From positions 929-64,928 of the forward strand of contig CAZGMQ010000009.1 of NCBI GenBank assembly GCA_964526745.1: a stretch of 64,000 bases of DNA. Direction: 5' to 3'. This stretch comes from an uncultured Verrucomicrobiota bacterium (GTDB taxonomy: Bacteria; Verrucomicrobiota; Kiritimatiellia; CAIQIC01; Lenti-01). The translations under genes and the position numbers were made by a program. This document shows, one piece after another, positions 43,040 through 60,401 of this stretch; within the stretch, counting starts at the first letter, position 1, and every line of letters starts with the position of its first letter. The notes under the pieces are model-generated. The model did not search any database, was not told where the DNA came from, and was given only the letters and a program-made list of their open reading frames with translations.

Positions 43040-43250
43040 GCGAGGGCATTCAGTTACAGTTTCTCCGACGTCTCGTCTTCTGGCTTACGGCAATCTACTC
43101 TTCCACCTTCTCCCGCCCGCGAGGGGGCGAAATGGCTTTGCTGGAATTTCGGAACCGATTACAGCGGCGCGACCGCGCGGGATTCTCACCCGCTTCCGTT
43201 AGTCGCCGGAGGGGTCTCCAACAAGGAGACACTTCCGCACCCTAGCACCC
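43040..43250 (-). promoter_or_regulatory. Cobalamin (B12) riboswitch in the 5' leader of the 41561-43015 gene.
   Basis: Minus-strand RNA contains GGAAGCGGGUGAGAAUCCCGCGCGGUCGCGCCGCUGUAAUCGGUUCC (matches the conserved GGUGxxAAUCC...GCCxCUGUAA core). A B12-box-like UAAGCCAGAAGACGAGAC lies about 60 nt before the AUG. A CCCU..AGGG hairpin overlaps the ribosome-binding site. Confidence 0.72.
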
Positions 43251-43516: not shown

Positions 43517-43574
43517 AAGGGTCTGAATGGGATATTCGTAAGGGTCTGGATACTGGCGTCTAAGGGTCAGAAAT
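43517..43574. repeat. Three direct AAGGGTC(T/A)G(A/G)AT repeats spaced 22-23 bp, at the left border of the phage-derived block. More copies lie inside the next 1.6 kb.
   Basis: aagggtctgaat (43517), aagggtctggat (43540), aagggtcagaaat (43562, overlapping the dam stop). Further AAGGGTC copies near 43661, 44051, 44195, 44527 (doubled), 45085. Confidence 0.6.
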
Positions 43575-44331
43575 TCTGGATGATCAGCTCTGATCTCTGG
43601 ACCTTTCGGCTTGCTGCTGATGACCCGACGGAATACCCCAGCTTGACCTCTGTCTGCTGGAAGGGTCTAAAAATTGACCGCACCTCTTTGCAGTTCCCCA
43701 GGGACAGAAGGAACCTTCCCTTGATGCCGGCCAGCAAATCCGCCAGGGCCTGGAACCGATCGAATGAGACCGCGTAGTCATCTGTTGAGTGAAAGTATGG
43801 CGGATCGATGAAGAACAGCGTGTGAGGCCGATCGTAGCGCGTCAGGCAGTCAAAGGCATCCAGATGCTCGATGTTGACCTTCTCCAAACGCCAGTGAACA
43901 GCCAGAAGGGTTTCTGCAATAGAACTCAGGTTCAGGGCCGGTGACCCGAGCGTTTTCATCCCATAGACCCGGCCTTTCGGTTTTCCACCAAAGCAGAGGC
44001 GTTGTAGATAGAAATACCGAACAGCTCTCTGAATATCCGTAAGGGTCTCCGGCCGCTTCATTTTCTCGATTTCGAATATCTCTCGGGACACTACGGCCCA
44101 CTTGTAATACTCTATGAAGGGTTCCAGATGATTCTGAATGACTCTCCAGAATGTGACCAGCTCGGAGTCTGCGTCATTGATCACTTCTGCCTTGGAAGGG
44201 TCCTTTTGGAATAGGACCCAGGCGGCTCCACAGAAGGGTTCGCAGTAGCAGACGTGATCCTCGGGGATCCGGGCAATGATTCTTTTGGCGAGGCGGCTCT
44301 TCCCGCCGAGGTAGGCAAAGGGACTATTCAT
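43567..44331 (-). CDS. dam: DNA adenine methyltransferase (Dam / D12 class).
   Basis: FAYLGGKSRL, CEPFCGAAWV (motif I) and FIDPPY (motif IV). Confidence 0.8.
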   Translation of the reverse strand: MNSPFAYLGGKSRLAKRIIARIPEDHVCYCEPFCGAAWVLFQKDPSKAEVINDADSELVTFWRVIQNHLEPFIEYYKWAVVSREIFEIEKMKRPETLTDIQRAVRYFYLQRLCFGGKPKGRVYGMKTLGSPALNLSSIAETLLAVHWRLEKVNIEHLDAFDCLTRYDRPHTLFFIDPPYFHSTDDYAVSFDRFQALADLLAGIKGRFLLSLGNCKEVRSIFRPFQQTEVKLGYSVGSSAASRKVQRSELIIQNF

Positions 44332-44487
44332 CAGAACGAACTTCCTATACCGTGCTTCCTGACTTCGGGCCAGTCTGGAGGGACCGTCATTGGCACGGAC
44401 TGCCGGGAATTAATCTTCCGGTGGATTGAGTGGTTGCACCCACTGAATCGGTTCCCCGGACACTCTCACACGAGAGGCCGGAAATGG

Positions 44488-46003
44488 TTATATCAGGCCG
44501 TTGATGGCATTGGCTAAAAGGGTCTGTTCGATTGGGTCTGTGTCCGGAGGCTGGAGCAGCTGGTCCTGGATGGCGGATAGTGCTGCTTCTGGATTTGTGC
44601 TTTCGCGGAGGATCCGCGGGATGTTGGCGTAGCGTTCGCGGAAGTGCCGCGCGACGGCCGCGGTGCCGGCGTCTGCAATGGCATCGGCCTGGTCAGCATT
44701 ATCGGTGTTCGCGGCGAAAATAGGGGCTGCCGCCGACCTCCCGGTCGGCGGCGAGGACTGTCTGCGGGAGATGCTGTATGCGCTGGACGGGGATGCCGAG
44801 GCGTTCGGAGGCCGTTGAAAGACCATCATCGGTTGGTTCAAGGCCTGCCTCATACAGATTGGAGAGGAGTTCGGAGGTGCGCTTCACCTCTTCGGTCGTG
44901 TCGCCGGCGAAGCTGATTGTGGGAGCCCGGCCAGGATAGCCATTGAGTTGCAGCCAGGGTGCCACCACCTGATGTCGGAGCGTATTTCCAAGGTTGCGAG
45001 AATCAAACTTCCGAATGTCATCCCGGACATCCCCCTGGAGATCCGCAGTCCCGGACCCCATTCCGGTCGGTGATGTTTCGGATGAAAGGGTCTGCCCCAG
45101 GATCAGCCTGGAGATCTCCCGCCGGCAACTGGTCTTAAACTTCTCGAAACCCTCCCCTGAGTCGCGGGCCGCTTCTTTCAGCTCGATCGAAGAGTCACCC
45201 GAAAGGACCAGGCCGCCCAGCTGCGTGGCATATGAAATGGCCGACTCAAGGATCCGGCGATCATGGTTGTCATTTGAATCCGTTTTCCCGACCATGAACG
45301 GCGAGCCGTAGCGGCCGAGGAATCGTGCCCACCAGGTCGTGGCCATGGCGGAGAGCAGCCAGAGGAAGAAGATTGCCCGCATGGGTCCACCGAACCGGTC
45401 CGGGGATGTCAGGGTATGGCCTCGATGCAGGATGTATCGTGTGGAGTCCAGAGGCTCCGCATCGATGAATCCACAAGTTTCTTTCTCTGTGACAATGGCC
45501 TGTCCATTCTTATCCCATCCGATGAGGCGATACGGAACCGGAACCAGTTCGGAGATCATATAGCGCCGGCCCAGCTCCGGACATGCCGGATCCGCAGGGG
45601 CAAACACCTTTTCGGCGATTGAAAGCGGGAAAATCACGGCATCCAGAAGATGATTGCAGCACAGATCTAGAGTATCGGATTGACGAAGCATCAGTTCTGC
45701 CGCATCGGCAGCCTCGACATCCTTCGGGTTGTCTTTGTCCCATGGCGCTACCATGATGGCATCGCCAATGACGGCATTCTTTCGCTGGAAAAGGGTTGCC
45801 TGAATATGGGTATCTTGCAGGACTACATCCCGGCAGAGTTGCCACAGCTGGCTGGAATTGCCCTGTTCCGACATCCGGATGATAGCCGCGACGCGATCGA
45901 CATCCAAATTGGTGGTGCGGAGCGACTGTTCATCGCGGGTTGAAACCGGGGTCAGACGACCCTGGCTGGGTGCTTTGGTTTTCTTTTTCGGTTTTTTAGA
46001 CAT
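44488..46003 (-). pseudogene. Mu-gp29-like portal protein (DUF935), apparently split by a frameshift near 44700-44760.
   Basis: 434 aa ORF 44699-46003. A roughly 70 aa continuation in another frame (ORF 44488-44853) overlaps the same DNA. Together they give about 505 aa, the expected portal length. Confidence 0.5.
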
Positions 46004-46012
46004 GCCGTTCTC

Positions 46013-47524
46013 CTATGACAAAAGGTTTCCGCTGAATGGGGTGCCGATGTTCACGGCCTTTGCTTCGATCTTCCCGCCCCGCTTGTTCAGGGCGTAGAGG
46101 GCGAGCTTCCCGCCATCGAATGTGTCCGCGTGATTGCCGGCGTTATCCAATTCGTTATCAAATCCGCCCTTTACCTTTTTAGCCAGGCGCCGATCCTCTT
46201 TGACCCACCTATCCGGTGGCATGGCGATTTGAGAATCTTCGTAGACCTCGACATACCGCTGGCCGGTATATGTTTTCATATTCATCGATTGACCTTGATA
46301 GTCGATCGTTTCGGATGAAGAGCACAGCATCACACGGGTGTATTTCCGGAACTCTTTCCGCACATTTGCGGCATAGTATTTTTCATTCGATGAATCCACA
46401 GCCAGACCGGAAGCCCGTCGTCCCGTCGCATCTTGACATGATTCAAGGATTTCACGCAGAAGGGCTTTTGCCTCATCCGGGTTTGCCTCTTTGAAGCGGA
46501 ATACCAGCCGTTCCACATATAGGTACTGCGACACCTTCTGCGTCACGACGATGCTGGAAGGGTTAGACATCTTGTTGGTGGTGGTTGCGACATCATACCC
46601 GATGGCATATGGATCGCTGGTCATCGATATGGCCCAATCCGCCGGCAGATCATTTTCGGCTGCCACGCAGCTCATGCGGTAACCGAGTTCCTGTGCCGCT
46701 CCGATAGCGGACAGCGGAATGGCTGCGGTGCCGCCGACGATGAATTTGAGCGCATAGGAGCGGTCCCAGGTGTCCCTGTTGAAATAGTTCTTGCGATGTT
46801 CATCCGGAGAAATTTGAGCACCGGATTTCATATCGTACAGGTGAATGCCAGCCAGATCGGCATCCCAAGCATCGACGCGATGGACAGGGATACCTAGCTG
46901 GGATGTGTAGGTGTTCCCGCTTGGATTATTTTCAAACTCTGTTCCGGGTTCTGGGGCGGCCAGCTCGTAGGAGAAGTGGGCGTCATCTGACGGTGGCGTG
47001 GTAGCCATGATGAGATGGAATGTTGGATCCCTAGAGATGATAGGTTCCATTTCACCGAAGAGAGCGCGGAAATCCTTGATGAATCCGATTTCATCCATGA
47101 AAACCCAGCCAGAGTATCCGCGCGCCGTCGCGATATTTGGTGCGATGACCTTCATTCGAGAAACAACGTGTTCAGAATGGCGGAAGGTGACTTCGAGGCG
47201 GCCCTGATCGAACAGATCCATTAGATCACTATCTTCGAGTCCTTCCCCATTCGATTCAATGATGACCCCATTGTCTATCGAGACATCACGGAGCGTTTGT
47301 AACAGTTCGCCAAAGATCTGCGTGGCTTTGAACGGAAGTTCAGATCCGACAGATAACGATGCCGATACGAATGTACAAAGGATGCCAGGATTCTCCAGCA
47401 TGACCTGAAGGATCTTGAAAGCAAAAAGGGTGGATTTTCCGGCCTGGCGCCGCCAGAGAAGCAGGCACACGCGCAGGGGTTTCATCCAGCGCGAAGCAAA
47501 CTTCTGATAGCGGGTGAGTTCCAT
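46013..47524 (-). CDS. Terminase large subunit.
   Basis: Walker A WRRQAGKST, Walker B VFMDEIGF, C-terminal nuclease-like acidic motifs; 503 aa. Confidence 0.75.
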   Translation of the reverse strand: MELTRYQKFASRWMKPLRVCLLLWRRQAGKSTLFAFKILQVMLENPGILCTFVSASLSVGSELPFKATQIFGELLQTLRDVSIDNGVIIESNGEGLEDSDLMDLFDQGRLEVTFRHSEHVVSRMKVIAPNIATARGYSGWVFMDEIGFIKDFRALFGEMEPIISRDPTFHLIMATTPPSDDAHFSYELAAPEPGTEFENNPSGNTYTSQLGIPVHRVDAWDADLAGIHLYDMKSGAQISPDEHRKNYFNRDTWDRSYALKFIVGGTAAIPLSAIGAAQELGYRMSCVAAENDLPADWAISMTSDPYAIGYDVATTTNKMSNPSSIVVTQKVSQYLYVERLVFRFKEANPDEAKALLREILESCQDATGRRASGLAVDSSNEKYYAANVRKEFRKYTRVMLCSSSETIDYQGQSMNMKTYTGQRYVEVYEDSQIAMPPDRWVKEDRRLAKKVKGGFDNELDNAGNHADTFDGGKLALYALNKRGGKIEAKAVNIGTPFSGNLLS

Positions 47525-48087
47525 TAATCCTTTTCCATGTCAGCCATGAGGTCGATGAGCTGCTGAACCTGGATTGACCTCTCAGCGCCGGAAGTGGCGA
47601 TCTTCTGAGCGCGTTCATCCTTAAACCAGGAGAGGAATTGGTTTGCGACCTGGAAGCGGAACTTGTCGCGATCCAGCTCTGCTGCATCCTGGGCGAGTTC
47701 GAGGCGCTGCTTGTCGAGCTCCAGGCTTTTGGAGCGGGTGACGGCCTGTTTGACGGAAGCCAGAACCTTGGCGGCCTTGATGGGATCCAGATCTGGATCC
47801 GAAAGGCTGTCGACCAGGTCGAGCATCGTGCGGTCGACCATATCGAACCCATCGGCCTCGATCTCCCGGCGGATGGATTCCGCGCGGGTCCGACGCTCTT
47901 CCAAATTCCGCTGCTGTTTCAGCCAGGCTTGATAATGACGGGGAGACTTCTTGAATGAAGAGTAGTTCTGAGGCTTGTAGGGTCCATAGCCGTGACCCTT
48001 CAGCCAGGCATTGAGCTGCTTCCAGTTCTTACGGTCCCGGATCATGAAACAGAGTTCTTCCCGGACTTCGTACGGGAGGCGCGTCAT
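47524..48087 (-). CDS. Mu-gp27-like DUF3486 protein (small terminase-like).
   Basis: Internal start MTRLPYEVREELCFMIRDRKNWKQLNAWLKGHGY... resembles Mu gp27 (ITRLPQELRDEL...). The ORF-track 5' extension is out of character. Confidence 0.6.
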   Translation of the reverse strand: MTRLPYEVREELCFMIRDRKNWKQLNAWLKGHGYGPYKPQNYSSFKKSPRHYQAWLKQQRNLEERRTRAESIRREIEADGFDMVDRTMLDLVDSLSDPDLDPIKAAKVLASVKQAVTRSKSLELDKQRLELAQDAAELDRDKFRFQVANQFLSWFKDERAQKIATSGAERSIQVQQLIDLMADMEKD

Positions 48088-48100
48088 CGGGATATAAGGG

Positions 48101-48382
48101 TTAAGGGTACTGGCGCTCACGGAACGTGACTCCTTCTGAGGTGGCCTTATAGTCGACCAGGCCGGACAAGGGACGATTGACGCGCTTGACCAGGCCGAAG
48201 CCTTCCAGGACCGCAAGGGCGTCGGCCACATGCGATTCATCAAACTCGCCATCCACGGCACCCGCGCGCCGGATCCGGTTGGTCAATGTTTCAATGGAGA
48301 ACTTATGCGCTGCCCGATCGGCCAGATGGCAGATCAGCGCTTCGCGGAGCTGTTCTTTTCGCTGTGTGTCTTGATCCTTCAT
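48101..48382 (-). CDS. Hypothetical small protein.
   Basis: ORF track; probable start MKDQDTQRKEQL. Confidence 0.35.
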   Translation of the reverse strand: MKDQDTQRKEQLREALICHLADRAAHKFSIETLTNRIRRAGAVDGEFDESHVADALAVLEGFGLVKRVNRPLSGLVDYKATSEGVTFRERQYP

Positions 48383-48386
48383 TGAA

Positions 48387-48731
48387 TCAGCCTTTCGTGT
48401 CCTTGGAGATATGAGTCTCAAGCATGCCTTCGATTCGTCCCAGTCGATTAGCCGTGTCGATCCCGTTTCGGTTACTTGTTGTAATAAGGGTGTCGATTTT
48501 CCCCTTCAGATCTCTTGTTTCCTGGCGCATAGGAGCGAATTCGCGATCGATGCGGGCGTGTACCCCATTGATCTCCGAAGTCAGCTCCGTTTTGCGCACA
48601 TATTTCTTCGCCATTTCTTCCGGGACCGGCGGGGATCGCTTTTTGAATCCGAGGGCTGCTGCGATCGATGCCAACGATGCGCAGAGCACGGTGATGGGCC
48701 AAATGACATCTCCTGGTGTGATATCGCTCAT
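48387..48731 (-). CDS. i-spanin (Rz)-like protein: N-terminal TM helix plus periplasmic coiled coil.
   Basis: Internal ATG at 48731 gives MSDITPGDVIWPITVLCASLASIAAALGFKK... followed by heptad-rich sequence. It starts 2 nt after the upstream gene's stop. Confidence 0.5.
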   Translation of the reverse strand: MSDITPGDVIWPITVLCASLASIAAALGFKKRSPPVPEEMAKKYVRKTELTSEINGVHARIDREFAPMRQETRDLKGKIDTLITTSNRNGIDTANRLGRIEGMLETHISKDTKG

Positions 48732-48733
48732 TT

Positions 48734-49972
48734 CTATTCCTCTGAAAAAGATGCCGACGCTGGCCGGCCGCTGGGCATGGCAGCAGCCGGGGCGACGGCA
48801 AGATTGGTTGATGTGTTTCGAGTGGAAATGGGCGGGACGGCCGAGCCGATGGCTTGGATGGTGGCGACATCGGACGGCCCGGCCCATTTGAAGTGATAGA
48901 AGATCCTGGCGACTTCGCCGCGGTCGGCTCCCTCTTTGATCCAGGCATAGGCCACATCCGGCTTTCCGGGACCTTCCAGGCCGGAACACAGCTGCTGAAT
49001 GATCATTCCTGTGTCACTGACATTCAGGCGGTTGACCGGGAAGGTGTCGGTAATCTTGAAAGGATGGACGGCCGCCCAGTCAAATGGTGCCGGGCAGGAG
49101 GACGGGCGGGATCCGTGATTGTAGATCAGTTTGAACCCGAGCGCATCGAATTCGGAAGCCATTTGCTTTTCGAGCTGAGTCCCGTAGCTGGTGCGGCCGG
49201 ATTCGGCCACGGGCTGCAGCAAGACGTTGGCCGGCCCACCGGCTTTGACTACACCAATGGCCCAGCTGACCATCTCCGGGGAGTGCTGCAGATCCACGCC
49301 GGCATCGCCATACTTCCGCGGTCCGCCACGGCTTCCCTGGTTGTCGTTGAAGACGCTGTTGAAAACCCACATGCCATTTGCACGGCAATGGCGCAGCAGC
49401 AGAGCATAGGCCGCCTCGGTCCATGCTCGGAATTCTGTTTTGTTGGCGGCGTAACGGCCCCAGGATGAAAACTCAATGTCATAGATTCGGACGCCCCATA
49501 ATGTGCAGGCGTCGAGATCCGCCTGGAGAATAGCCAGGGACTCTTCCAGAGTGGCGCCGCCATTGGCCCAGCGGTTTGCCCTCCCATAGCCAGCGAGGGT
49601 CCGGCCGACCTGCAGCGGAGGCAGCGCGGCGGATGGCGCCGGCGGGTCAACATTCGGGTCTATGACTGGATCTGGGTCCGCTTCATCCTGGTTGACCACC
49701 TCGGCAAAATTCGCGGCGATCCCGTTCAGTTGCTCCATCAGGGCATCGTTCGACATGACGGCCTCCGCGAGGGCCACGACATTCGGGTTTCCGGCGATGG
49801 CGGAAGCGATGGCAACAGCATCAGCCGGATCGATGGAGGCCGCAACGGACCCGATCTGGCCGACCAGGGCATTCGGATTGAGATCCAGCTGGTTTGTCGA
49901 TGTGCAGCCAACGCCGCTCCACCCGATCAGAGCAAGCAGCAACGCGATGACTATAAATTTCATGTCCTTCAT
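48734..49972 (-). CDS. Secreted lipoprotein, glycoside-hydrolase-like (possible cell-wall hydrolase).
   Basis: Lipobox LIGWSGVGC; 412 aa; start overlaps the caspase-like gene's stop. Confidence 0.4.
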   Translation of the reverse strand: MKDMKFIVIALLLALIGWSGVGCTSTNQLDLNPNALVGQIGSVAASIDPADAVAIASAIAGNPNVVALAEAVMSNDALMEQLNGIAANFAEVVNQDEADPDPVIDPNVDPPAPSAALPPLQVGRTLAGYGRANRWANGGATLEESLAILQADLDACTLWGVRIYDIEFSSWGRYAANKTEFRAWTEAAYALLLRHCRANGMWVFNSVFNDNQGSRGGPRKYGDAGVDLQHSPEMVSWAIGVVKAGGPANVLLQPVAESGRTSYGTQLEKQMASEFDALGFKLIYNHGSRPSSCPAPFDWAAVHPFKITDTFPVNRLNVSDTGMIIQQLCSGLEGPGKPDVAYAWIKEGADRGEVARIFYHFKWAGPSDVATIQAIGSAVPPISTRNTSTNLAVAPAAAMPSGRPASASFSEE

Positions 49973-50691
49973 TCTTGATCCTCTTTGGGTTGGAGCTTCA
50001 TTGCCGGGAGATCCCGGAAAGTGGTGGCGCCGTATTCCTCATAGTGCGGAACCTGGTTGCGCGGCATGATGGCCGCAGCGGCATCGAACCATTCCTTATA
50101 AGAGAGCTTTCCGTCGAAAGTGTTGAGCAGCGCTTGAGTGAAGACGCCGCCCGAGTCATCGCCATAGGAGGATTCACCATCTCCGGATCCGCCGAAGTGG
50201 ATCAGAGAGGCCCGGAAGCTGCGAGGCATGGATCCGGAAATAGATCGGGCCCGAAAATTGGTGCCGGAATTGCAGGTGTCAGAAATGAACAGGATCCGGA
50301 TGCCGGCCGGCGCCTCTTTCCAGAGCTTCCGGAGGATGTCATCCGAGAGCTGGCCATCCCATAGGCAAAGGGTCTCATCGAGGCCGTCTTCCTCATCGCC
50401 GTCGGTGTCCGGGATCTGTCCGCCGTGTCCGCTTATATATAGGATAAAGAGATCGCCAGCCTTCATCTGCTTCCAGGCCTTCCGCGTGGCGCGGATCAGA
50501 GCCTCTGATGTGGCCTCCCTATTGTGGAAGAGATCCGTCTGGATTCCCCCCCCCGAGCAGAGCAGTCCGAACATCTGGGCATCCACATCGCATCCGGGGC
50601 AGTTGCCATTCCATCCATCATAGGCATTTGGATCCACATTGGTGAGGCCGGCCACAACGGCATGGGCATTCTTCGGAAGGTTTTTACGCAT
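49969..50691 (-). CDS. Standalone caspase-like peptidase C14 domain protein.
   Basis: LFILYISGHGGQ (catalytic His) and ILFISDTCNSG (catalytic Cys, D-x-C-x-SG). N-terminal HAVVAGLTNVDPNAYDGWNGNCPGCDVDAQMF caspase-fold start. 240 aa with no signal peptide. Confidence 0.7.
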   Translation of the reverse strand: MRKNLPKNAHAVVAGLTNVDPNAYDGWNGNCPGCDVDAQMFGLLCSGGGIQTDLFHNREATSEALIRATRKAWKQMKAGDLFILYISGHGGQIPDTDGDEEDGLDETLCLWDGQLSDDILRKLWKEAPAGIRILFISDTCNSGTNFRARSISGSMPRSFRASLIHFGGSGDGESSYGDDSGGVFTQALLNTFDGKLSYKEWFDAAAAIMPRNQVPHYEEYGATTFRDLPAMKLQPKEDQE

Positions 50692-51295
50692 GATATGGGC
50701 CTTTCAGATCGAGACGGTATTGAAGGCCCTCAGCGGTCAACGCCAGCGCGGAGATGTCATGAAGGCGCCCAGACTCCACCCGCTTCTCCGTGGTTCGGGG
50801 CGTGGGGTTATTTTTGTTCCAGGCATCATGATTGGCGCTCATGCCCGGTTTGCTCCAGGCGCCGCGGACGGCCTCGGTGCAATACCAGGCCCATTCCGCT
50901 CCGGCCTGGCTCTTGAACCAATCGCCCAGGAGGGCCTTTGCGATGAGGCGCGGATAGGCGTACCAATCATAGGGCATTCCTTTGGCGTGCTCCAGGAACC
51001 ATTCGTTGGCCATCTTCCGGTCCAGATCCGTAGCGCCCGGCATGCGAAGGACGGCGATCTTGACGCCGCGATCGCGCATGTGGTTTTCGTAGGTTTCGAT
51101 CGGCGTGAGAACGCCGCCCTTCAACATGAGTGCTTCGCCAATGAACAGCTCGCCGCGATAGCGGCAGACCATGGCGTCGTGGCTTCCGCGGGATCCGATG
51201 GCGCGCTGGATGAACCAGCTCGTGACGCCGGGGGAATAGCGATGGATGATGTCGCCCGGAAGAAGTGCCTCCCTATTAATCAGAGGAATCGTCAC
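50684..51295 (-). CDS. Permuted-papain-fold NlpC/P60 (YiiX/DUF830-like) peptidase; candidate endolysin.
   Basis: N-terminal GDIIHRYS...GSHDAMVC and C-terminal WYCTEAV Cys motif. GTG start after a GGAGAT Shine-Dalgarno. No signal peptide. Confidence 0.5.
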   Translation of the reverse strand: MTIPLINREALLPGDIIHRYSPGVTSWFIQRAIGSRGSHDAMVCRYRGELFIGEALMLKGGVLTPIETYENHMRDRGVKIAVLRMPGATDLDRKMANEWFLEHAKGMPYDWYAYPRLIAKALLGDWFKSQAGAEWAWYCTEAVRGAWSKPGMSANHDAWNKNNPTPRTTEKRVESGRLHDISALALTAEGLQYRLDLKGPYHA

Positions 51296-51504
51296 GCGGG
51301 ATCTCCAAATGAAATGACGCCGGGCCTATCTAAGGAGGAAGGTTGACCCGGCGTCTGGTGTATATATGATCCGCGAAGAGATTTACCGCATGGCATGCCT
51401 CCTGTTCCTGGAACTGAAATGTGACTGTGCACAATCATTACAGGCCTCACGATGCACGGGATTGCTCATCACGGAAACGAGCAGTGGGACTCGTGGGGAA
51501 GGCA

Positions 51505-51540
51505 TAAAAAAGGCCGCCGGCGAGTGCCGGCGGCGTGTAT
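51505..51540 (-). terminator. Rho-independent terminator (minus strand) after the 51556-52515 gene.
   Basis: On the minus strand: GCCGCCGGCACUCGCCGGCGGC hairpin followed by CUUUUUUAU. Confidence 0.6.
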
Positions 51541-51555
51541 TAGCGGTTGTTTGAA

Positions 51556-52515
51556 CTATCTTGCTGTGTGTAGAACCTTAAGAGAAACCATAAAGGGCTT
51601 CTTTCGATTGGCTGATGGATCAAATCGATCCGTGATATCCACATCGCCGCGCAGGTATGTTTTGCCGGCCAGAGCATCTGGAGAGATTGACGGATCCAGT
51701 ACCATCTTGATTCGATTCTGCGCATTCGCAAGGATTACGCTCCAGCCCTTGCTGCCGTCATCATAGTCGGCTGCCCGGATATCCATCGCCTGATTGTCGA
51801 CGGAGCGAACGGTTTCCTGCCTGTCCACTGGCGGCATATCAAGAGGAACTTCTGATATGGATTCTTTGGGGATTGTGGCAGATTCACCACCCGTCATGCC
51901 AATTTGGATATTGTCGCCACCTGAACGCTGAGCAGGATGAAGCAGCTTGACCGTGTCCTCTGCCATTCTACGTTCATCAAACCGAGCGGCCTCAATGATG
52001 CTGACTACATCCCCGGCTTTGATTGCTGCAGAATCTCCGATGTTGATGATCGTATTATTGTTAAAACCCATCGGAGCACTTTTGGCGGTAAACTGATCTC
52101 GAAGACAGCCTCCGAAATAGCCGCTGCCCACAATGATTCCTCCAATCACAACCCATGGAACAATAGGATGAATATCCGCAAGCGATTTCACATGGAGCCT
52201 CTTTCTAATCTCCGCAATATTTCTGTCCATGGCCTTTTTGGATCCAAAAAACAGTTTGACCAGGATGTCTTCCGTAAATGGGCTTTGGTGGGTGATTTCA
52301 TTGAGAACCGGAACTGCGTATGCTTTTCTCATACCCGTTGAAAGCGAGTCAAGGACAATTGGAACTCTGTTAATAAAGCGCTCCAAGGCAACAAGCGAAT
52401 CCGCTGCATCTTGTAAAGAGAGCAGCGGAACATCATATCGGATTGAAATTGGCCACTCCGTTGCAATCACGCCACGACCACCGGACAGAAGGGCTTTTCT
52501 TGTCGATTTTCTCAT
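51556..52515 (-). CDS. Hypothetical single-TM protein.
   Basis: ORF track; TM segment IHPIVPWVVIGGIIVGSGYFGG. Confidence 0.4.
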   Translation of the reverse strand: MRKSTRKALLSGGRGVIATEWPISIRYDVPLLSLQDAADSLVALERFINRVPIVLDSLSTGMRKAYAVPVLNEITHQSPFTEDILVKLFFGSKKAMDRNIAEIRKRLHVKSLADIHPIVPWVVIGGIIVGSGYFGGCLRDQFTAKSAPMGFNNNTIINIGDSAAIKAGDVVSIIEAARFDERRMAEDTVKLLHPAQRSGGDNIQIGMTGGESATIPKESISEVPLDMPPVDRQETVRSVDNQAMDIRAADYDDGSKGWSVILANAQNRIKMVLDPSISPDALAGKTYLRGDVDITDRFDPSANRKKPFMVSLKVLHTAR

Positions 52516-52691
52516 CTATTTCCTTTCGCTAATCTACTGGCCATCGCTCTATACTCCGGCACTGCTGGCCTTTTGGCCGGGTGGGTCCTTCCATCCCGCT
52601 ATTCAACCTTCGACGTTGAAGATGCCATTGCAATAGGGGCAGATGTTTTCGCCGCTGTGGAGAATGGTTCTCCTGATAGGTTTCGATTCCG

Positions 52692-53345
52692 TTATCGGTG
52701 CCATGTGACCGGATAGGCCTTCTCTTTGCCATTAACGATTACAAACACTTCCGGATATTCTTCATCTCCTGAAATTTCTTCCTTTTCTTTTCTCCCGCCA
52801 GAAGCGAGGTAAATTTCCTTTTGGAAATCCCCGAATCGAACAATGGCGCGCAAATTTGATGCGGTTTTGTTTTTGATGCTAAATGAAATTCTATATACTC
52901 CGCCGGCAACCCGCCGAAGGTTCGAAAACCCCTGGCCTGTGATGCTGGAGTCGGTGAGGTATGCGCTAACCCCACTGATATTCTTCACGGACCTGTCTTT
53001 TACGCCGAGGATGTTAAATACATAAACCGGGAATTCCTGTTTGGATTGTGCCGCCCGTCGGGACGAAATAGATTTATTGTACCGCGATCGCGCCTGTTGC
53101 ACAGAGGCCCGATATTGGGTTGCTTTTGCAGGATCGTATCCGAAACGTTGTTGCATATCCGATGGGAGTTCCTGGAAAAATAGTTTGGCTATGCCGCCAG
53201 AGTGCATGACGGTTATTCCGTCTGGCTCTGCCCTGGTTATTTTAACGTTTTTGTAAACCGTGCCGAGCATGTTGGTTATATTGTCGGCCATCGCCAATGA
53301 CAGGCAAATGACGATAGCGAATATGGTGCAAAGCATGAGTTTCAT
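52692..53345 (-). CDS. Secreted hypothetical protein.
   Basis: Signal peptide MKLMLCTIFAIVICLSLAMA. Confidence 0.45.
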   Translation of the reverse strand: MKLMLCTIFAIVICLSLAMADNITNMLGTVYKNVKITRAEPDGITVMHSGGIAKLFFQELPSDMQQRFGYDPAKATQYRASVQQARSRYNKSISSRRAAQSKQEFPVYVFNILGVKDRSVKNISGVSAYLTDSSITGQGFSNLRRVAGGVYRISFSIKNKTASNLRAIVRFGDFQKEIYLASGGRKEKEEISGDEEYPEVFVIVNGKEKAYPVTWHR

Positions 53346-53384
53346 TGTGTTTCTCCTTTTATCAAAAAGTTCCTATCAGGTCCC

Positions 53385-53726
53385 CTATTTCCTCAGTTTC
53401 TTCTCCACCGCAGCCACGCGCAACAGGATTTCATCCAGCTTGGCCATTATGGCGCTGGCACCAGGCAAATAGTCCGCCGGATACTCGCGGGTGACCAGCG
53501 GAGGCGTGTCGATTAACTGTTGAACCTTGGGCTTCTCGGGCGGTGCAATCCCGGATTCTCTCTCAGCTTCATCAATTTTAATGAGCATACGGCGGCTAGG
53601 AGATGTCTTGCCAGACTTCCATTGGGACATAGCTGGCGTAGAACAGCCGAGCCGTGTCGCTGTCTTTTGCCAAGTCCAGCCATTGGTATCCATTAACCGG
53701 ACGATTCTGTCCCATGAAAAGGCCAT
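53385..53726 (-). CDS. Phage repressor-like HTH (XRE-type) DNA-binding protein.
   Basis: HTH WTWQKTATRLGCSTPAMSQWKSG. Transcribed divergently from the Ner-like gene. Confidence 0.6.
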   Translation of the reverse strand: MAFSWDRIVRLMDTNGWTWQKTATRLGCSTPAMSQWKSGKTSPSRRMLIKIDEAERESGIAPPEKPKVQQLIDTPPLVTREYPADYLPGASAIMAKLDEILLRVAAVEKKLRK

Positions 53727-53786
53727 GTAAGTATATGTAAGTTTTCCTTGACTGTTTTCTTATACGTTCTTATATTGCCTTACATG
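53724..53786. promoter_or_regulatory. Divergent promoter/operator region between the repressor and the Ner-like gene.
   Basis: Inverted repeat CATGTAAG (53724-31) ... CTTACATG (53779-86); each arm overlaps one of the two start codons. Direct repeat ATGTAAG at 53735. TTGACT (-35) at 53748 and TATATT (-10) at 53771. Confidence 0.55.
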
Positions 53787-54002
53787 ATGCGGCAACCTAT
53801 AGAGAAAAACAAGGGCAAACGCCCATTCGTCATAAGCGGCATCTGCGCGGCTGCTGTCGAACTCGGAGTAACACGTACACACCTTTACCGCGTCCTTCAG
53901 GGAGAGCGGAAAAGCCCGAGAATTGAATCCAGTGAGTTTTATAGGCAGTCCATGGCCGCAAAGCGCCAGTTTGAAAACCAACCGAAAGGGCACGAACAAT
54001 GA
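53784..54002 (+). CDS. Ner-like small HTH DNA-binding protein.
   Basis: HTH AAAVELGVTRTHLYRVLQGERKS. The ORF-track start at 53748 is the TTG of the -35 hexamer; the true start is probably the ATG at 53784. Confidence 0.55.
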   Translation: MMRQPIEKNKGKRPFVISGICAAAVELGVTRTHLYRVLQGERKSPRIESSEFYRQSMAAKRQFENQPKGHEQ

Positions 54003-54892
54003 GTCGAAAATACAAGATCATCGGGTTCGAGTGGATTGAAAAGACCAGCCTGAAGCCGCATCCGGATGCGCAGTTGCCGATGGCGCCGACGGACCAGGCA
54101 TTCCTGAAGAACAGCATCCAGAGCGGAGGTCTGATCCAGCCGCTGCTGGTGCTGGAGAAGGCCGACAAGCTGGATGGGATGTTTCAGGTGGTGGATGGCT
54201 GCAACCGATTCGACAGCGATCCAATCGACGGAAAATTCCCCTGCGTCCTGATCCAGTGCGACAATGTGCGCGAAGTGGCCCTGGAATGCCTTGGCACCGG
54301 TCGCCAGCGGTCGGCCGGGAACCGGATTCTGTCCTACATGGAATTGCATCGGGCAGAGGTGGTCAAGGCGGCTGAATTTGGGGCGATTGCGGCGGCCGGA
54401 AATTCGTTTGGGGTGTCACGTGACACCCCAAAAATACAGGGGAATTTGTCCAATTTTACCTCCGAAGCTATCGCAGCGACCCTTTCAGTCAGCAAAAAAG
54501 ACGTTCTCCTTGCCATCGATTTGCTGATGTGTTTGGAGCGGAAATGCACGGCGCCGGTGAAGGCCGGGGCGCTGATGACACCACCGCGGAAACTGGACCT
54601 GAAAAAGAAGGAAGACCAGGTCTATTTCGAGCTGCTGAAGCAGACACATGCGGGCGTGATGGGCGGGGGCTCGCCAATCCGTCGCTGGAAGGCCGGCCTG
54701 GCGGGCAAGCATTCGCAGGCCGAAGGGCGGACGGCCATCGATTACGCGATGCTGTTCAAGGAAGGGCTGCACCATCTGCGGTCGGCAGCGAAGCACTGGG
54801 AGGACATCACGTTCGAGGACCGCGCAACGCTGGTGGAACTGGCATCGCAAGTCGGCGTGCTGCTGCCGTCTGACATCAAGCGGGTGCTGTGA
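53999..54892 (+). CDS. ParB-like nuclease-domain protein.
   Basis: N-terminal ParB/Srx fold pattern (PLLVLEKADKLDGMFQVVDGCNRF); high GC3. Confidence 0.55.
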   Translation: MSRKYKIIGFEWIEKTSLKPHPDAQLPMAPTDQAFLKNSIQSGGLIQPLLVLEKADKLDGMFQVVDGCNRFDSDPIDGKFPCVLIQCDNVREVALECLGTGRQRSAGNRILSYMELHRAEVVKAAEFGAIAAAGNSFGVSRDTPKIQGNLSNFTSEAIAATLSVSKKDVLLAIDLLMCLERKCTAPVKAGALMTPPRKLDLKKKEDQVYFELLKQTHAGVMGGGSPIRRWKAGLAGKHSQAEGRTAIDYAMLFKEGLHHLRSAAKHWEDITFEDRATLVELASQVGVLLPSDIKRVL

Positions 54893-55428
54893 TGAAGCGG
54901 GCAACCAAGGTTATTTCTTCCAGAGGAAAGGGAAAAGAGGAATTGGCTTCCACCCGCGCGGATAGGGCTCTCCAAACGGCCAGCGGACCAAAGCGCGGCC
55001 AATTTCCCAATAAGCCAAACAGGCGCGGCCAATCTCTTCGGAAAGGCCCGTCAGCGAATCTGGTTTCGGCTGAAGGCTCGAAAAAGCCTCGTGTACGGGC
55101 TTTGCGGAAGTCAAAAGCTGAAGGGCAAGGAAGCGAATACGAAACACTTTGCTTGGCGGCCAAATCTGTTGCCAGCGGTCTCTCATTTCTTGAGTTCCTG
55201 CGATGTAGTCAAGGGCGGCATCCATGTGTTTCTCGGACCATTCGCACCAGGAAGGAAGCCCAATTCTTTGCAGGATTAGTCGAAGACGCTTTATATCTTC
55301 TTCCCGAAACGTGCGGCGCAGTTCTGCTTCGGATCGCTCGGCAAATGAAGACGGAATTTCGGGGATTGAAGTTACCACGGGACAAAATCTATCAAACCGC
55401 GCGGCGCGGTGGAAGCCGAAAGGGTTAA
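54889..55428 (+). CDS. Highly basic hypothetical protein (uncertain; low GC3).
   Basis: ATGA overlap with the ParB-like stop; its stop lies 2 nt before the downstream ATG after an AAGGG Shine-Dalgarno. GC3 is about 50%, against about 75% in the neighbouring genes. An alternative antisense ORF exists at 54911-55483. Confidence 0.35.
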   Translation: MMKRATKVISSRGKGKEELASTRADRALQTASGPKRGQFPNKPNRRGQSLRKGPSANLVSAEGSKKPRVRALRKSKAEGQGSEYETLCLAAKSVASGLSFLEFLRCSQGRHPCVSRTIRTRKEAQFFAGLVEDALYLLPETCGAVLLRIARQMKTEFRGLKLPRDKIYQTARRGGSRKG

Positions 55429-55430
55429 GA

Positions 55431-57302
55431 ATGTCCACCCGCCCGTACAACGACCGCGAACAGGCCCGGATTGCCGTATGCAAGAAGGCGCAGGCGCTGA
55501 TTGCCGACGGGGCGACAATGAAACGGGCGGCAAAGGCGGCGGGAACCTCCCAGGGCTCGCTGGAGCGGTGGATGCGGGCATGGCGTAGTGAAGGGCCGGA
55601 CGGCCTGCGGGACGACTACGGTGCGGTGGGGCGGCCGGCGGTGGCGGATTGCCTGGACCAAACATCCATCGATTTCATCCGTCGCAAAGCGGCGAAGTGC
55701 GGCAGCATGGCGCTAACCTATCAGTTCTTCGTTGACGATCCGGCCTGTCCCCAGGAACTCCGGGATTATCTGATTCCCAGGCTAACCAGTGGCAAACCCC
55801 TTTCCCTTCCTCTTTCCCTGCGCCGCGCGGCGAATGTGATTCCCGATCTGGCCGCGCGGCATCGAAGCGATGTCGCCTTCGGGCACATCGGCTTCAAGAC
55901 ACGTCACAGCGATATGGTGATTGATCCGCGCACGGGCCAGGAGCGCCGTCTGATGGCCGGCGACATTTACCTTTCTGACGATATGTCCACCAATCATCCC
56001 TTCTGGTTCGAGCTGCCCGATGGCGAGATCAAGACGCGGGCCGATCGGGGGAGCAAGCTTGCGGAGCGCTTTGGCGTGGCCGTGGGCCGCCAAGGTCTCT
56101 ATACCATTGATGCTCGCGGCAAGTGGCTCGGGTGCGAACTGATCGCCCGCCCGACGGATGCCTATACCTCCGCGGATGTCCTGCGGCACTTCCGCCGGAT
56201 CCTGGCGGAGTTCGGCTTGCCGCGCATTGCCTGGATCCTCGAAAAGGGCGTCTGGATGGCCCGGACGGTCGATGGCCGCATGAAGGTGCTCATTGACGAC
56301 GATGCTCGTGAAGAGACCGTCGCCGGTCTTTCCACGCTTGGATTCAGCGTCAATCATGTCCACACCTCCGAGGGCAAGGCCCTGATTGAGGGGGCGTTCC
56401 ACCACTTCCAGGATATCTGCGACCTGATGGAGCTTCCGAACGTGGGCCGCAAGCGTGGCGAGATGGAGCGGGTTGAAAAGGTGATGACCCGCATCCGCAG
56501 CGGCGTGATCCATCCGCGCGATGCCGGGATCCCGCATGTCACCGCCCAGGTCCTGAATCTGAACAAGGCCCAGGTGTTCTTCAATGGCAAGCACAAGAAT
56601 GGCCGCATCCAGCACGGCGTTCCCGACGAGGTCTGGCTGCGCGACACCACCACTCATCCGCTCCGAAAACTTGAACCTGGCCACATGGGAGTCTTCATGC
56701 CCGCAAAATACGCAACGATGATTCGCCAGGGGCATGCTGACAAGACACTGGAGGGAACGACCTATCGCTTCCACAACGAGGTGTTCGGACGGCTGGGCGC
56801 GGGATACCGCCTCGCAATAGCATTCGATCCAGGCGAACCGCAGGCCGGCGCCGAGGTCTACAATCTGGAGACCGGCAGCCGGAACATCGACCGCCATTCC
56901 CCCAACGCGTGGATCTGCCACGCGGAACTGGAGATCGACTCGCCACTATATGGCTACTCGCCGGAAGTGGCCGAGGCCACCCGCCGGAAGAAGAAGCACA
57001 CCCGCGCCTTCCAGAGCGCGTATGCGGGCACCGGCCTCTTCGGCAAGGGCGCGGGCCGAGCCATCGAGCGGCGCGAGGCCGACGGCCGCCTGATCCGCAT
57101 GGAAACCAATATCGGGGATGCTGGAGGAACGGATCGACCCGGTTCGTGTCGTGCCCTACCGGTCGGAACAGAATCCAGCATCCCCACCAATCGAACGGTC
57201 CGCAGGAAAGAACTCACAGCTAAGCAAGTCATCAATGCAGAGGCCAAGGCCGATGCCCTGGAGGCTCGCCTGCGAGATCGAGGAATGTTGCTGCCGCAAT
57301 GA
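55431..57302 (+). CDS. Mu A-like protein (putative transposase) with an N-terminal HTH. The DDE core is not confidently recognised.
   Basis: 623 aa. N-terminal HTH (GATMKRAAKAAGTSQGSLERWMRAW). Lies upstream of a MuB-like ATPase. The ORF-track start at 55224 is an out-of-character extension. Confidence 0.5.
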   Translation: MSTRPYNDREQARIAVCKKAQALIADGATMKRAAKAAGTSQGSLERWMRAWRSEGPDGLRDDYGAVGRPAVADCLDQTSIDFIRRKAAKCGSMALTYQFFVDDPACPQELRDYLIPRLTSGKPLSLPLSLRRAANVIPDLAARHRSDVAFGHIGFKTRHSDMVIDPRTGQERRLMAGDIYLSDDMSTNHPFWFELPDGEIKTRADRGSKLAERFGVAVGRQGLYTIDARGKWLGCELIARPTDAYTSADVLRHFRRILAEFGLPRIAWILEKGVWMARTVDGRMKVLIDDDAREETVAGLSTLGFSVNHVHTSEGKALIEGAFHHFQDICDLMELPNVGRKRGEMERVEKVMTRIRSGVIHPRDAGIPHVTAQVLNLNKAQVFFNGKHKNGRIQHGVPDEVWLRDTTTHPLRKLEPGHMGVFMPAKYATMIRQGHADKTLEGTTYRFHNEVFGRLGAGYRLAIAFDPGEPQAGAEVYNLETGSRNIDRHSPNAWICHAELEIDSPLYGYSPEVAEATRRKKKHTRAFQSAYAGTGLFGKGAGRAIERREADGRLIRMETNIGDAGGTDRPGSCRALPVGTESSIPTNRTVRRKELTAKQVINAEAKADALEARLRDRGMLLPQ

Positions 57303-57334
57303 CGCGGCAGCCAAATAAATAGGAGAGCACCGGC

Positions 57335-58330: not shown

Positions 58331-58341
58331 AGGAAAACATC

Positions 58342-58968
58342 ATGGCAAAGAAAATATATATCGATCCCGAAGGCAGAGCGATTCCCCCCAAATACGTGTC
58401 GCCCTATGACAAGGCCCGCGACCGCATTGCGCGCCAGATCCACGCGGACTGGGAGAAAGAGGAAGATCGCCTGCGCAAATTGAAGGCCCGGACCCAAGCC
58501 AGGATTCAAGCGCTGCGGGAGCTGGCGGCAAACGACAGCGACGTCAAGCTCGGCGGATCCGCCGGTTATCTCCAGTTCCGGAGCTTCGATGGCAAGACCA
58601 TCATCCGCCTGGAGAACGTCAAACAGTACGAATTCGACGAAAAGATGGAGATGGCCCTGCAGCTGATCAACGAGGCCATCGACGATATGTCCGGCAAGGC
58701 CAAGCGGTCCAGGAGCGTCAATGTGGCCCAGCTGCGGAAGATTGCAACGGCCGCCTTCCAGCCGCGCGGGAAGAACGGGAAGCTCGATCGTCAGCGCGTG
58801 CTCGATATTACCCGCCTCGACATCGACCACCCCAAGTGGCGCCGCGCCTGCGAGCTGATCCGCGAAGCCGAGCGCGTCACCGGCCATCGGCAATACATCC
58901 GCGTGGCCACCATGGAAGGACTGCCCCCGAAGCAGCTTCCCATCATTCTCGACATCTCGAAAGTTTAG
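58342..58968 (+). CDS. DUF3164-like Mu-type early protein.
   Basis: 208 aa in the position and size typical of DUF3164 in Mu-like early regions. Confidence 0.4.
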   Translation: MAKKIYIDPEGRAIPPKYVSPYDKARDRIARQIHADWEKEEDRLRKLKARTQARIQALRELAANDSDVKLGGSAGYLQFRSFDGKTIIRLENVKQYEFDEKMEMALQLINEAIDDMSGKAKRSRSVNVAQLRKIATAAFQPRGKNGKLDRQRVLDITRLDIDHPKWRRACELIREAERVTGHRQYIRVATMEGLPPKQLPIILDISKV

Positions 58969-58982
58969 GAAAGGAGCCAGGC

Positions 58983-59654: not shown

Positions 59655-59839
59655 GAGAACACCATGGGCGATGGAACATACAAACGGACGCGACGGGACA
59701 ATCGGAAGACAGTCTATCGCCCCGGCAAGCTAGGGAAAGGGCTGATCGTGCAGGCGGACAAAACCGTCTATCGCAAGATGCCGAACGGGTCTCTTGTCCG
59801 CATGGGCAAGCTGGAAGAGCGCACCGGAGAAGTGATGTA

Positions 59840-60388: not shown

Positions 60389-60401
60389 GAGGAGACCAGG
60401 C

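Follow-up and report, generated by a model that had tools for sequence, protein, structure and literature searches.

What is a caspase-like protease doing at the head of the late operon of a Mu-like prophage, and could it take part in dismantling the cell envelope? The question is raised by a stretch of 64,000 nt from an uncultured Verrucomicrobiota bacterium (Kiritimatiellia; contig CAZGMQ010000009.1, assembly GCA_964526745.1), the whole of which is called the window here. In it, four genes that we call g1 to g4 stand ahead of the terminase genes of the prophage, and they encode, in the order of transcription, a circularly permuted NlpC/P60 enzyme, a C14 caspase-like protease, a probable lipoprotein and a small membrane protein; a fifth gene, g5, separates them from the gene of the small terminase subunit (TerS). 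A preliminary description, made from the sequence alone, had presented the four as a lysis-like cassette carrying the protease between a peptidoglycan peptidase and a spanin. We find that the 5' end of the Mu-like late operon is occupied by g1-g4 as a variable cargo of enzymes, in a place that corresponds, by analogy, to the lysis-gene slot of Mu. It is well supported that these proteins act on the cell envelope and that they sit in phage late operons. We give about an even chance to the further step, in which we infer late expression, substrates, order of events and lytic purpose: g1-g4 would then be a lysis-type module for envelope demolition, made of a protease, a lipase, a glycosidase and a membrane protein.

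A mosaic enzyme slot in a Mu-like late operon

The preliminary description had the four minus-strand genes tightly packed upstream of the terminase genes, with start/stop overlaps of -2 to 8 nt, and a direct reading of the junctions confirms both statements (coordinates are collected in Table 1). An overlap of 8 nt joins g1 to g2 (ATGCGTAA) and one of 4 nt joins g2 to g3 (ATGA), gaps of 2 nt and 4 nt separate g3 from g4 and g4 from g5, and the 3' end of g5 overlaps TerS. With overlaps or gaps of at most 4 nt all along, g1-g5 look co-transcribed with the packaging genes. At the other end, an intrinsic terminator closes the upstream gene, which encodes a 319-aa protein, precedes g1, and marks the start of a new transcription unit headed by g1. 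The leader that follows it is the sole sizeable intergenic gap from the terminator to the portal gene, and the layout of Mu makes it a putative late-promoter region; a scan found no sigma-70-like site on the minus strand.

The record of Mu gives, in order, a terminator, the late promoter (Plys), the signal-anchor-release (SAR) endolysin gp22, the spanins gp23/gp23.1, gp24, the releasin gp25 (99 aa), the winged helix-turn-helix (wHTH) protein gp26 (96 aa), TerS, the large terminase subunit (TerL) and the portal. What the two loci have in common is the place in the late operon, after a terminator and before a gp26-like gene and the terminase genes, with g4 and g5 at the positions of gp25 and gp26. 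They differ in their content, since there is here no SAR endolysin, no pair of inner- and outer-membrane spanins (i-spanin and o-spanin) and no DUF2730 signal, and the enzymes are instead a YiiX-type Cys hydrolase, a C14 protease and a lipoprotein that resembles the glycoside hydrolases of clan A (GH-A).

The preliminary description had also proposed to look for homologous cassettes in other Mu-like prophages, and such cassettes were found in L150, L031 and L032 (related loci carry L numbers throughout). L150 keeps the same six-gene order, g1-g2-g3-g4-g5-TerS, at 61-88% amino acid identity and with a ratio of nonsynonymous to synonymous substitution rates (dN/dS) of 0.12-0.19 in every gene, so that g1-g4 are real genes under purifying selection and not chance open reading frames (ORFs). 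Our greedy ORF caller gave spurious antisense ORFs in GC-rich loci, and the conclusions drawn here use hidden Markov model and BLAST matches together with the databases' own gene calls.

Across L031, L032, L116, L119-L122 and L150, the block g4-g5-TerS-TerL-portal is fixed, and the enzymes upstream of it vary. The slot holds g1 only in L116, an alpha/beta-hydrolase (GHSxG-type) and a 95-aa lipoprotein in L121, an alpha/beta-hydrolase, two secreted proteins and a 94-aa lipoprotein in L119 and L120, and an alpha/beta-hydrolase, a caspase lipoprotein, a g3-like lipoprotein and an 88-aa lipoprotein in L032; L031 has the content of L032 plus a GDSL lipase, and the window and L150 have g1, the caspase and g3. 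The first position is always taken by an acyl-hydrolase-type enzyme, be it g1 or an alpha/beta-hydrolase. This is a mosaic enzyme slot ahead of a fixed membrane protein, g4.

The enzymes are also linked to one another. The caspase gene is adjacent to a g3-like gene in the window, L150, L031, L032 and L078, and the two are fused in two proteins from phages that have a different backbone, of the SU10-adaptor type. In the first, P0157, a C14 domain at 15-214 (47% identity to g2, E=4e-73) is followed by a g3-type barrel at 282-535, and the second, P0185, is 38% identical to g2; in these fusions, the caspase takes the place of the helical N-domain of g3. A DUF1353 gene comes after the fusion in L113. 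Downstream of the fusion in L114 come, in this order, a lipoprotein of 99 aa, whose homolog in L031 is the small lipoprotein of that locus (E=2e-19), a C-terminally anchored transmembrane (TM) protein and a g1-like protein (39% identity, E=8e-37) that lies three genes from the caspase. Direct adjacency of the caspase and g1 is seen in the window, L150 and L149. In L149, the caspase is a lipoprotein whose gene shares 4 nt with that of a g1-like protein, and the pair is preceded upstream by a tail-fibre-like gene and the genes of two small TM proteins. The fusions and L149 alike have small genes for TM proteins and lipoproteins on their flanks. The tail-fibre-like protein of this last locus (L149:50-1852, 600 aa) carries YadA_head repeats and a GDSL lipase domain and is possibly virion-borne.

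The caspase-like protease and its family

The assignment of g2 to C14, which the preliminary description had made for a 240-aa protein with intact SGHG and DTCNSG motifs, holds when checked against profiles and folds. The protein matches Pfam Peptidase_C14 (PF00656) with 63.3 bits for a cut-off of 21.4 (E=3.5e-17, model positions 10-224 of 233), PDB entry 3bij (GSU0716) with E=4e-36, and the yeast metacaspase Yca1 with E=2.5e-11. Its dyad, H89 (SGHGG) and C140 (DTCNSG), is invariant in an alignment of 36 sequences and aligned with the metacaspase dyad. Two acidic residues, D37 and D138, are invariant in the same alignment, the former being the D of 'GCinDA' (GCxND) and the latter that of 'DsCHSG' (DxCHSG) in Yca1. 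In the structures of MCA2 and Yca1, the two acidic Asp of the S1 pocket reportedly have a role in Arg/Lys specificity. This set of residues predicts that g2 is of the metacaspase type and cleaves after Arg or Lys rather than after Asp. The protein has no signal peptide, and its dN/dS against L150 is 0.15. A C-P-G-C/S motif, invariant in the caspase family, overlaps the S1-pocket Cys (C31-P-G-C34 in g2, ~50590-50601), and in six caspase loci the next downstream gene encodes a glutaredoxin/thioredoxin-like protein of ~100 aa with CPHC (e.g. L012:10762-11082). The motif and these neighbours hint at a redox control of the caspase-like protease.

A caspase-like protease had been called unusual in a phage lysis cassette, and the family has no PHROG and is found in none of the cultured phage genomes, a weak match in an uncultured jumbo phage being the only one. 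We recovered 174 clusters of metagenomic g2 homologs, and PF00656 is present in all of the 120 listed. Lipobox scoring finds a lipoprotein signal in 80 of these 120 top homologs, about 8 others resemble lipoproteins when inspected by eye, and about 30, g2 included, are signal-less; this split resembles the one between exported and cytoplasmic endolysins. The sole named homolog comes from a Kiritimatiellae metagenome-assembled genome, and a scan of genome contigs with a single caspase sequence gave only 4 loci, distant and non-phage. In the literature, we found only a passing mention that some metacaspase operons of C. botulinum look phage-related (PMC3501461).

The caspase gene is terminase-proximal in the window, L031, L032, L106 and L108. 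Seven other loci (L013, L015, L081, L082, L084, L091 and L095) encode homologs of 458-459 aa that have a lipoprotein signal and are extended at the N terminus by 225 aa, and the gene stands there directly after the Mu-like major head gene gpT and before the tail genes (~9326-10705 in L013). To see which genes accompany the caspase, Pfam was run on the 148 neighbours that lie within two genes of it in 70 non-redundant loci. DUF1353 leads with 8 members, ahead of Trypsin-like (3), Lipase_3 (2), GDSL (2) and Phage_lysozyme (1). DUF1353 is a phospholipase A2 (PLA2), as shown for TtaP, and in the typhoid-toxin islet its neighbour is a muramidase of prophage origin (PMC11525133). The caspase is repeatedly paired with at least five unrelated lipase folds, namely DUF1353, GDSL, Lipase_3 or alpha/beta-hydrolase, patatin and the YiiX type.

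The permuted NlpC/P60 enzyme

Profile, fold and NCBIfam comparisons agree on the permuted NlpC/P60 (papain-type) fold that had been read from g1. The profile of its family matches PDB 2if6 (YiiX) with E=1.9e-6 and 3kw0 (BCE_A0238) with E=5.5e-4, and the same two entries come on top when the AlphaFold2 model (predicted local distance difference test score of 88) is searched with Foldseek (probability 1.0, E about 1e-5). H39 and then C139, which is the permuted His-before-Cys order, are invariant in 30 g1 homologs. PF05708 has no match in g1 and one in only 3 of 30 relatives, and the match of g1 to the NCBIfam YaeF/YiiX families (E=1e-4, 21 bits) lies below their cut-offs of 216-279. Because these curated thresholds are not passed, g1 is to be seen as a divergent sister clade and not as a YiiX/YaeF equivalog. 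It has no signal peptide, and its dN/dS against L150 is 0.19.

It is for the substrate that the preliminary description has to be corrected, as it had made of g1 a peptidoglycan peptidase. The S1 pocket of the permuted members is hydrophobic, and YiiX was crystallised with a fatty acid (PMC3142127); the permuted NlpC/P60 proteins Tox-Act1 and TseH are phospholipases (PMC12994826), and LnsA acts in lipoprotein N-acylation (PMC7387801). Since the permuted relatives have such a pocket and lipid substrates, the peptidase is the less likely reading. The YaeF/YiiX branch is lipid-linked, and the corresponding slot of the related prophages holds alpha/beta-hydrolase or GDSL lipases. The more specific proposal of a canonical NlpC/P60 peptidoglycan endopeptidase or amidase finds no support, the order being permuted and the characterised relatives lipid-directed. 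From its sequence relatives, g1 is predicted to be an acyl (lipid) hydrolase or transferase rather than a murein peptidase.

The probable lipoprotein with a barrel

The third gene had been described as that of a secreted lipoprotein, and the lipoprotein signal is there; g3 is a 412-aa, enzyme-like protein, unlike the small lipoproteins of the spanin type. In the structure model, a helical N-domain (~33-94) and a Pro-rich linker lead to a confident (beta/alpha)8 barrel (~120-380), and the Cys at the end of the signal peptide (Cys23) is conserved among the relatives that have a signal. A search of 1.8 billion representative proteins gave 178 relatives at E<=0.001. The sequence of g3 has no match in Pfam, PHROG or PDB, and only 2 of 60 relatives match Cellulase or GH1, weakly (E=5e-4 to 3e-3). 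The residues N209, N211, E257, N285, H303 and D320 are invariant in the family. In clan GH-A, one catalytic Glu comes after strand 4 (the acid/base, usually in N-E) and the other after strand 7 (the nucleophile). Counting strands on the model puts the invariant E257 after strand 4, the invariant D320 (Asp, not Glu) after strand 7 and the near-invariant E167 after strand 2. On this model, g3 is probably a (beta/alpha)8 glycoside-hydrolase-like member of an undescribed family.

At the junction of linker and barrel, 7 of 10 sequences have G-(R/K)-T, and the corresponding bond of g3, R124|T125, is a candidate cleavage site for g2. The preliminary description had imagined that the protease processes one of its neighbours; the gene fusions favour g3 in this role, and the idea gains no such support for the 'spanin'.

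The membrane protein and the gene at the gp26 position

Of the Rz-like TM coiled-coil protein that g4 had been taken for, the N-terminal TM segment and the helical region after it remain, and the Rz or spanin identity does not. The TM segment is flanked by D3 and D8 on its N side and by K30-K31-R32 on its C side, where the homologs have NRR or RRR. Such acidic N and basic C flanks predict, by the positive-inside rule, an N-out/C-in topology, opposite to the N-in/C-out topology of an i-spanin, which argues that g4 is not one. There is no small lipobox ORF in or adjoining g4, nor any small lipoprotein of the o-spanin type in the window, and the sole lipoprotein at this place is g3 itself; a lipoprotein of 88-103 aa stands just upstream of g4 in L031, L032, L119 and L121. 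The spanin reading was rejected on the predicted topology, the lack of an o-spanin partner ORF and the better fit to the gp25 position.

Releasins are described as 99-aa type I (N-out/C-in) proteins that carry a twin basic motif where the membrane meets the cytoplasm, present in very divergent branches and with varied endolysin classes (PMC9239132). With its 114 aa, its predicted topology, its KKR motif and its location before g5 and TerS, g4 fits the descriptors of gp25, and it is kept in all close relatives, directly upstream of g5-TerS. It has no DUF2730 (PF10805) and no other Pfam match even at E<=10. Homology of g4 to gp25 and of g5 to gp26 was rejected, as BLASTP, hhalign and Pfam gave nothing significant, and the analogy alone was kept. 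By this analogy, g4 is predicted to work like the protein at the gp25 position, and it is not assigned to the gp25 family. The g5 protein is 55-88% identical in the relatives and has weak full-length EarA-like matches (E=0.003-0.05) and a match to phrog_436 (E=0.002).

A possible lysis-type module, or accessory cargo

If g1-g4 are a lysis-type module, the parts could be distributed as follows. The exported and lipid-anchored g3 would act as a GH-A-like glycosidase on murein or another envelope glycan. Its partner g2, a protease of the Arg/Lys type, would cleave envelope proteins (e.g. the tethers between outer membrane and wall) or free g3 from its anchor at R124|T125. As a YiiX-type acyl hydrolase, g1 would attack membrane lipid or the acyl chains of lipoproteins and be a LysB-like or PLA2-like substitute for spanins, and g4, an N-out/C-in protein similar to a releasin or holin, would govern access or timing. 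Having no signal peptides, g1 and g2 would enter the periplasm only after a breach of the inner membrane, like cytoplasmic endolysins. In its most complete version, which we put forward tentatively and consider unlikely as a whole, the caspase protease, the phospholipase-type enzyme and the new glycosidase family would dismantle the outer-membrane tethers, the lipid and the wall, in replacement of the spanins and perhaps of the endolysin, and the protease would be an 'executioner' that also activates the fused or adjacent glycosidase.

The lysis cassette of the preliminary description is supported by the Mu lysis-gene slot and by the terminator before g1, and the part of the prophage that is sequenced shows no further gene recognisable as a lysis candidate. 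Several observations weigh against it. We found no lysozyme, amidase or transglycosylase family for g1-g4 in Pfam, PHROGs and NCBIfam, nor do they match any endolysin, holin or spanin family that is known; the folds closest to g3 are plant- or glycan-type GH5/GH140 enzymes and not lysozymes, and the comparison of g4 with Mu gp25 gives E=0.31 in BLASTP and a probability of 1.5% in hhalign. All the topology and substrate assignments are predictions. A canonical lysozyme gene lies within two genes of the caspase in only 1 of the 70 non-redundant loci (in L017, the caspase comes two genes after a Phage_lysozyme gene), and a g3-like gene is found in only 3 of the 58 caspase loci that have enough downstream sequence. 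The families also change place. In L030, the caspase stands between portal and Mu prohead protease, with a patatin gene three genes upstream, in the 7 loci of the L013 type it comes after the major capsid gene, and g1-like genes lie between portal and protease in L117 and L118. The region between portal and protease is the site of MuF-type toxin cargo. The preliminary description had named homologs unrelated to lysis modules as what would speak against it, and this is partly what is seen, the caspase being not confined to terminase-proximal cassettes. Moreover, the structural arm of the prophage lies beyond the window, past the group II intron, so that a conventional set of endolysin, holin and spanin may lie elsewhere. 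Lysis genes sit at varied places of the late operon in other phages, e.g. P2, and for this reason positional mobility is compatible with lysis.

The presence of the caspase and g1 families at several positions of phage genomes is equally what one would expect of accessory cargo of the 'moron' type, a set of mobile effectors from variable genome regions that would remodel the envelope or serve in conflict rather than lyse the cell, be it by changing the surface of the host (to exclude superinfection, remove a receptor or the capsule, or form outer-membrane vesicles) or by harming competitors after release, and that would act independently of the release of progeny. The gain and loss of the enzymes upstream of g4 between close relatives goes in the same direction, a terminator-like hairpin at the 3' end of g3 would fit the insertion of a module, and most caspase homologs are lipoproteins exported by Sec/Lol, for which no holin is needed. 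Permuted NlpC/P60 relatives and PLA2s serve as antibacterial toxins (PMC12994826). However, the genes leave no promoter-sized gap all through g5 and into TerS, no immunity-like partner stands out among them, and L116 and L121 fill the Mu lysis slot with one enzyme and g4. We consider accessory cargo the chief competitor of the lysis reading, a real possibility if a rather unlikely one. The fusions and the adjacency of caspase and g3 suggest yet another arrangement, a dedicated zymogen pair in which the caspase would only process g3, the real endolysin, for example by cutting the barrel loose from the helical pro-domain that anchors it to lipid, g1 being unrelated cargo. The replacement of the helical N-domain by the caspase in the fusions, the conservation of G-(R/K)-T and the S1-pocket Asp that predict Arg/Lys specificity are all in its favor, but a g3-like gene is lacking in ~95% of the caspase loci whose flanks are long enough, and many members of the g3 family, of ~280 aa, stand alone with no caspase nearby, e.g. 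in L144. We find such a pair improbable, and g3 as an obligatory partner of the caspase was rejected on the same count of loci.

The C14 fold itself could evoke a trigger of abortive infection or regulated cell death, as in gasdermin or CHAT-type defence proteases, and g2 has a weak generic 'caspase' match in PADLOC (E=4e-4, 17.7 bits) and one to NCBIfam caspase_w_EACC1 (E=1e-4, far below cut-off). This is very improbable, as the gene lies inside a phage late operon and is coupled to it in translation, and as most homologs are periplasmic lipoproteins, unlike the known cytoplasmic defence proteases. The preliminary description had noted that no gasdermin-like partner is adjacent, and neither a gasdermin nor a sensor, an NTPase or another known defence partner is found among the neighbours, none of which is matched by PADLOC; a gasdermin or defence context was rejected for this lack of support.

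Comparison with known systems

Lysis-type demolition by g1-g4 can be compared with several characterised systems. In mycobacteriophages, LysB is a lipolytic enzyme that detaches the mycolate outer membrane (PMC5707550). The LysA/LysB system and the caspase cassettes have in common a lipolytic-type enzyme, which recurs in the latter as YiiX, alpha/beta-hydrolase, GDSL, patatin or DUF1353; the cassettes differ by the folds of their enzymes, an ordinary diderm envelope (probably of the Planctomycetes-Verrucomicrobia-Chlamydiae group) and the added protease. The typhoid-toxin islet with TtsA and TtaP is similar in that a glycan hydrolase and a small phospholipase of prophage ancestry are proposed to open the wall and the outer membrane (PMC11525133), but the window has no DUF1353, the place of the lipase being taken by g1, and the typhoid islet has no protease.

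About 15% of the phages of diderm hosts lack spanins and need another route through the outer membrane (bioRxiv 10.1101/515445). The 'disruptin' gp28 of phiKT addresses the same problem without a spanin (bioRxiv 10.1101/515445); it is a cationic peptide, whereas a protease and a lipase are proposed here. The toxins Tox-Act1 and TseH of type VI secretion systems (T6SS) share the permuted His-then-Cys core of g1 and are phospholipases that act in the periplasm (PMC12994826), but they belong to non-YiiX clades, are delivered by the T6SS and have immunity proteins, and g1 has neither a signal peptide nor an evident immunity gene. As for g2, GSU0716 (PDB 3bij) is its closest solved relative and shares with it, as do the orthocaspases (C14B), the His/Cys dyad and the acidic S1-pocket motifs; the clade of g2 differs in being phage-borne and mostly lipoprotein, with an invariant C-P-G-C motif, ~230 aa and no extra domains.

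The prophage and its surroundings

The features of the locus are listed in Table 1. Past the portal and the D12 methylase, the window, L031 and L032 continue with host genes; in the window, these are a cobalamin riboswitch, DUF4465, NusA, IF-2 and TruB, and by the position of the riboswitch the prophage has its left end somewhere from 43197 to the D12 methylase gene. On the plus strand runs a divergent early operon of the Mu type, with a ParB-like gene, a transposase, a MuB-like ATPase and DUF3164.

Table 1. Features of the prophage arm and its flanks in the window (E, E-value; aa, amino acids)
Feature	Position	Strand	Size	Description and basis
g1	50684-51295	minus	203 aa, GTG start	Cytoplasmic YaeF/YiiX-type circularly permuted NlpC/P60 (C92-like) Cys/His enzyme; profile, fold, NCBIfam
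g2	49969-50691	minus	240 aa	Stand-alone C14 (metacaspase/orthocaspase-like) cysteine protease; PF00656, PDB 3bij
g3	48734-49972	minus	412 aa	Probable lipoprotein with glycoside-hydrolase-like barrel; signal peptide with Cys23, helical N-domain, Pro-rich linker, barrel
g4	48387-48731	minus	114 aa, begins at internal ATG of a longer mechanical ORF	Single-pass membrane protein, TM ~10-28 then helical region; analogue of Mu gp25 releasin by position and topology
g5	48101-48382	minus	93 aa	gp26-like small protein, probably winged-helix; backbone gene between cassette and TerS, at the position of the Mu gp26 wHTH protein
TerS	47524-48120	minus	198-aa gene call	Mu gp27 position; 69-71% identical in L031 and L032; Mu synteny
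TerL	46013-47524	minus		phrog_2, E=1e-14; 78% identical in L031, L032 and L119
Mu-type portal	44699-46003	minus		Last structural gene of the prophage arm; PF06074, E=8e-61
D12 methylase	43567-44331			Beyond the portal, then host genes
Cobalamin riboswitch	43075-43197	minus		69.7 bits; upstream of the DUF4465 gene
DUF4465 gene	41561-43015			Host gene
Leader	51296-51512	minus	217 nt	Putative late-promoter region upstream of g1
Intrinsic terminator	51513-51534	minus		9-bp all-GC stem and T-run; strongest site in the scan
Hairpin in g3	48753-48768	minus		Terminator-like; 6 bp (5 GC) and T-run
Gene upstream of the terminator	51556-52515	minus	319 aa	Central hydrophobic segment; phrog_4506, E=3e-36; weak LAPAL 'putative phage structural protein' match
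Gene of a secreted protein	52692-53345	minus	217 aa	Secreted protein
Group II intron, 5' end	62559-62807	plus		Rfam RF02001, 104.6 bits; RF01998, 43.8 bits

Between the repressor-like HTH gene and g1 stand the genes of the 319-aa and 217-aa proteins, which are undetected in the close relatives L031, L032, L116 and L119-L122; the 217-aa protein has weak matches only in the more distant L135 and L142. The hairpin in g3 lies within the last codons of the gene, before g4. It could act as a transcriptional attenuator or be the boundary of a g1-g3 insertion, but chance alone is expected to give weak sites of this sort, of which 17 were counted for an expectation of 11. The group II intron comes directly after the last small ORFs of the early region and probably extends to the end of the window, and since no long ORFs follow it up to 64000, the gene of the intron-encoded protein probably runs off the window.

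The layout of this arm is unusual. In the window (43567-62500), L119-L143 and L146-L148, the genome ends with an arm made up of the lysis slot, TerS, TerL and the portal, and more than 10 related viral (IMG/VR) contigs end within ~1.5 kb downstream of the portal gene or inside it. A truncated prophage or a phage satellite was rejected because of these contigs. In L147, ORFs that resemble the Mu F and G head genes by eye, with no search against families, come after the early transposition operon on the other, divergent arm. A scan of viral contigs for DUF3164 gave nothing; as to search patterns, alignment A4 was too diverse to derive any, and alignment A7 led to only 2 viral loci. In the more distant relatives L133-L135 and L137-L143, the TerL match, located at ~9.8-12.3 kb of each locus, is split in two. 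The two pieces are ~0.2-1.2 kb apart in several of these loci (e.g. L133, L134, L137 and L140), which suggests an insertion (intein, intron or homing-endonuclease gene), and they abut or overlap in others (e.g. L138, L139 and L143).

Meaning for phage lysis

Lysis cassettes, C14 peptidases and permuted NlpC/P60 enzymes are already known. What is new is a phage-borne and mostly lipoprotein C14 clade in the Mu lysis slot, which is fused elsewhere to an undescribed glycoside-hydrolase-like family and recurrently paired with lipases. This caspase family is widespread but exclusively in uncultured phages. The lysis of diderm hosts by phages is understood as the work of holin, endolysin, and spanin or disruptin peptide. 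If the lysis role of the module is true, the missing outer-membrane step would gain an enzymatic solution, the C14 peptidases of bacteria and phages would receive their first concrete role outside the ideas of defence and cell death, and new envelope-active enzymes would become available. If the enzymes are accessory cargo instead, they would define a new mobile effector module of phages.

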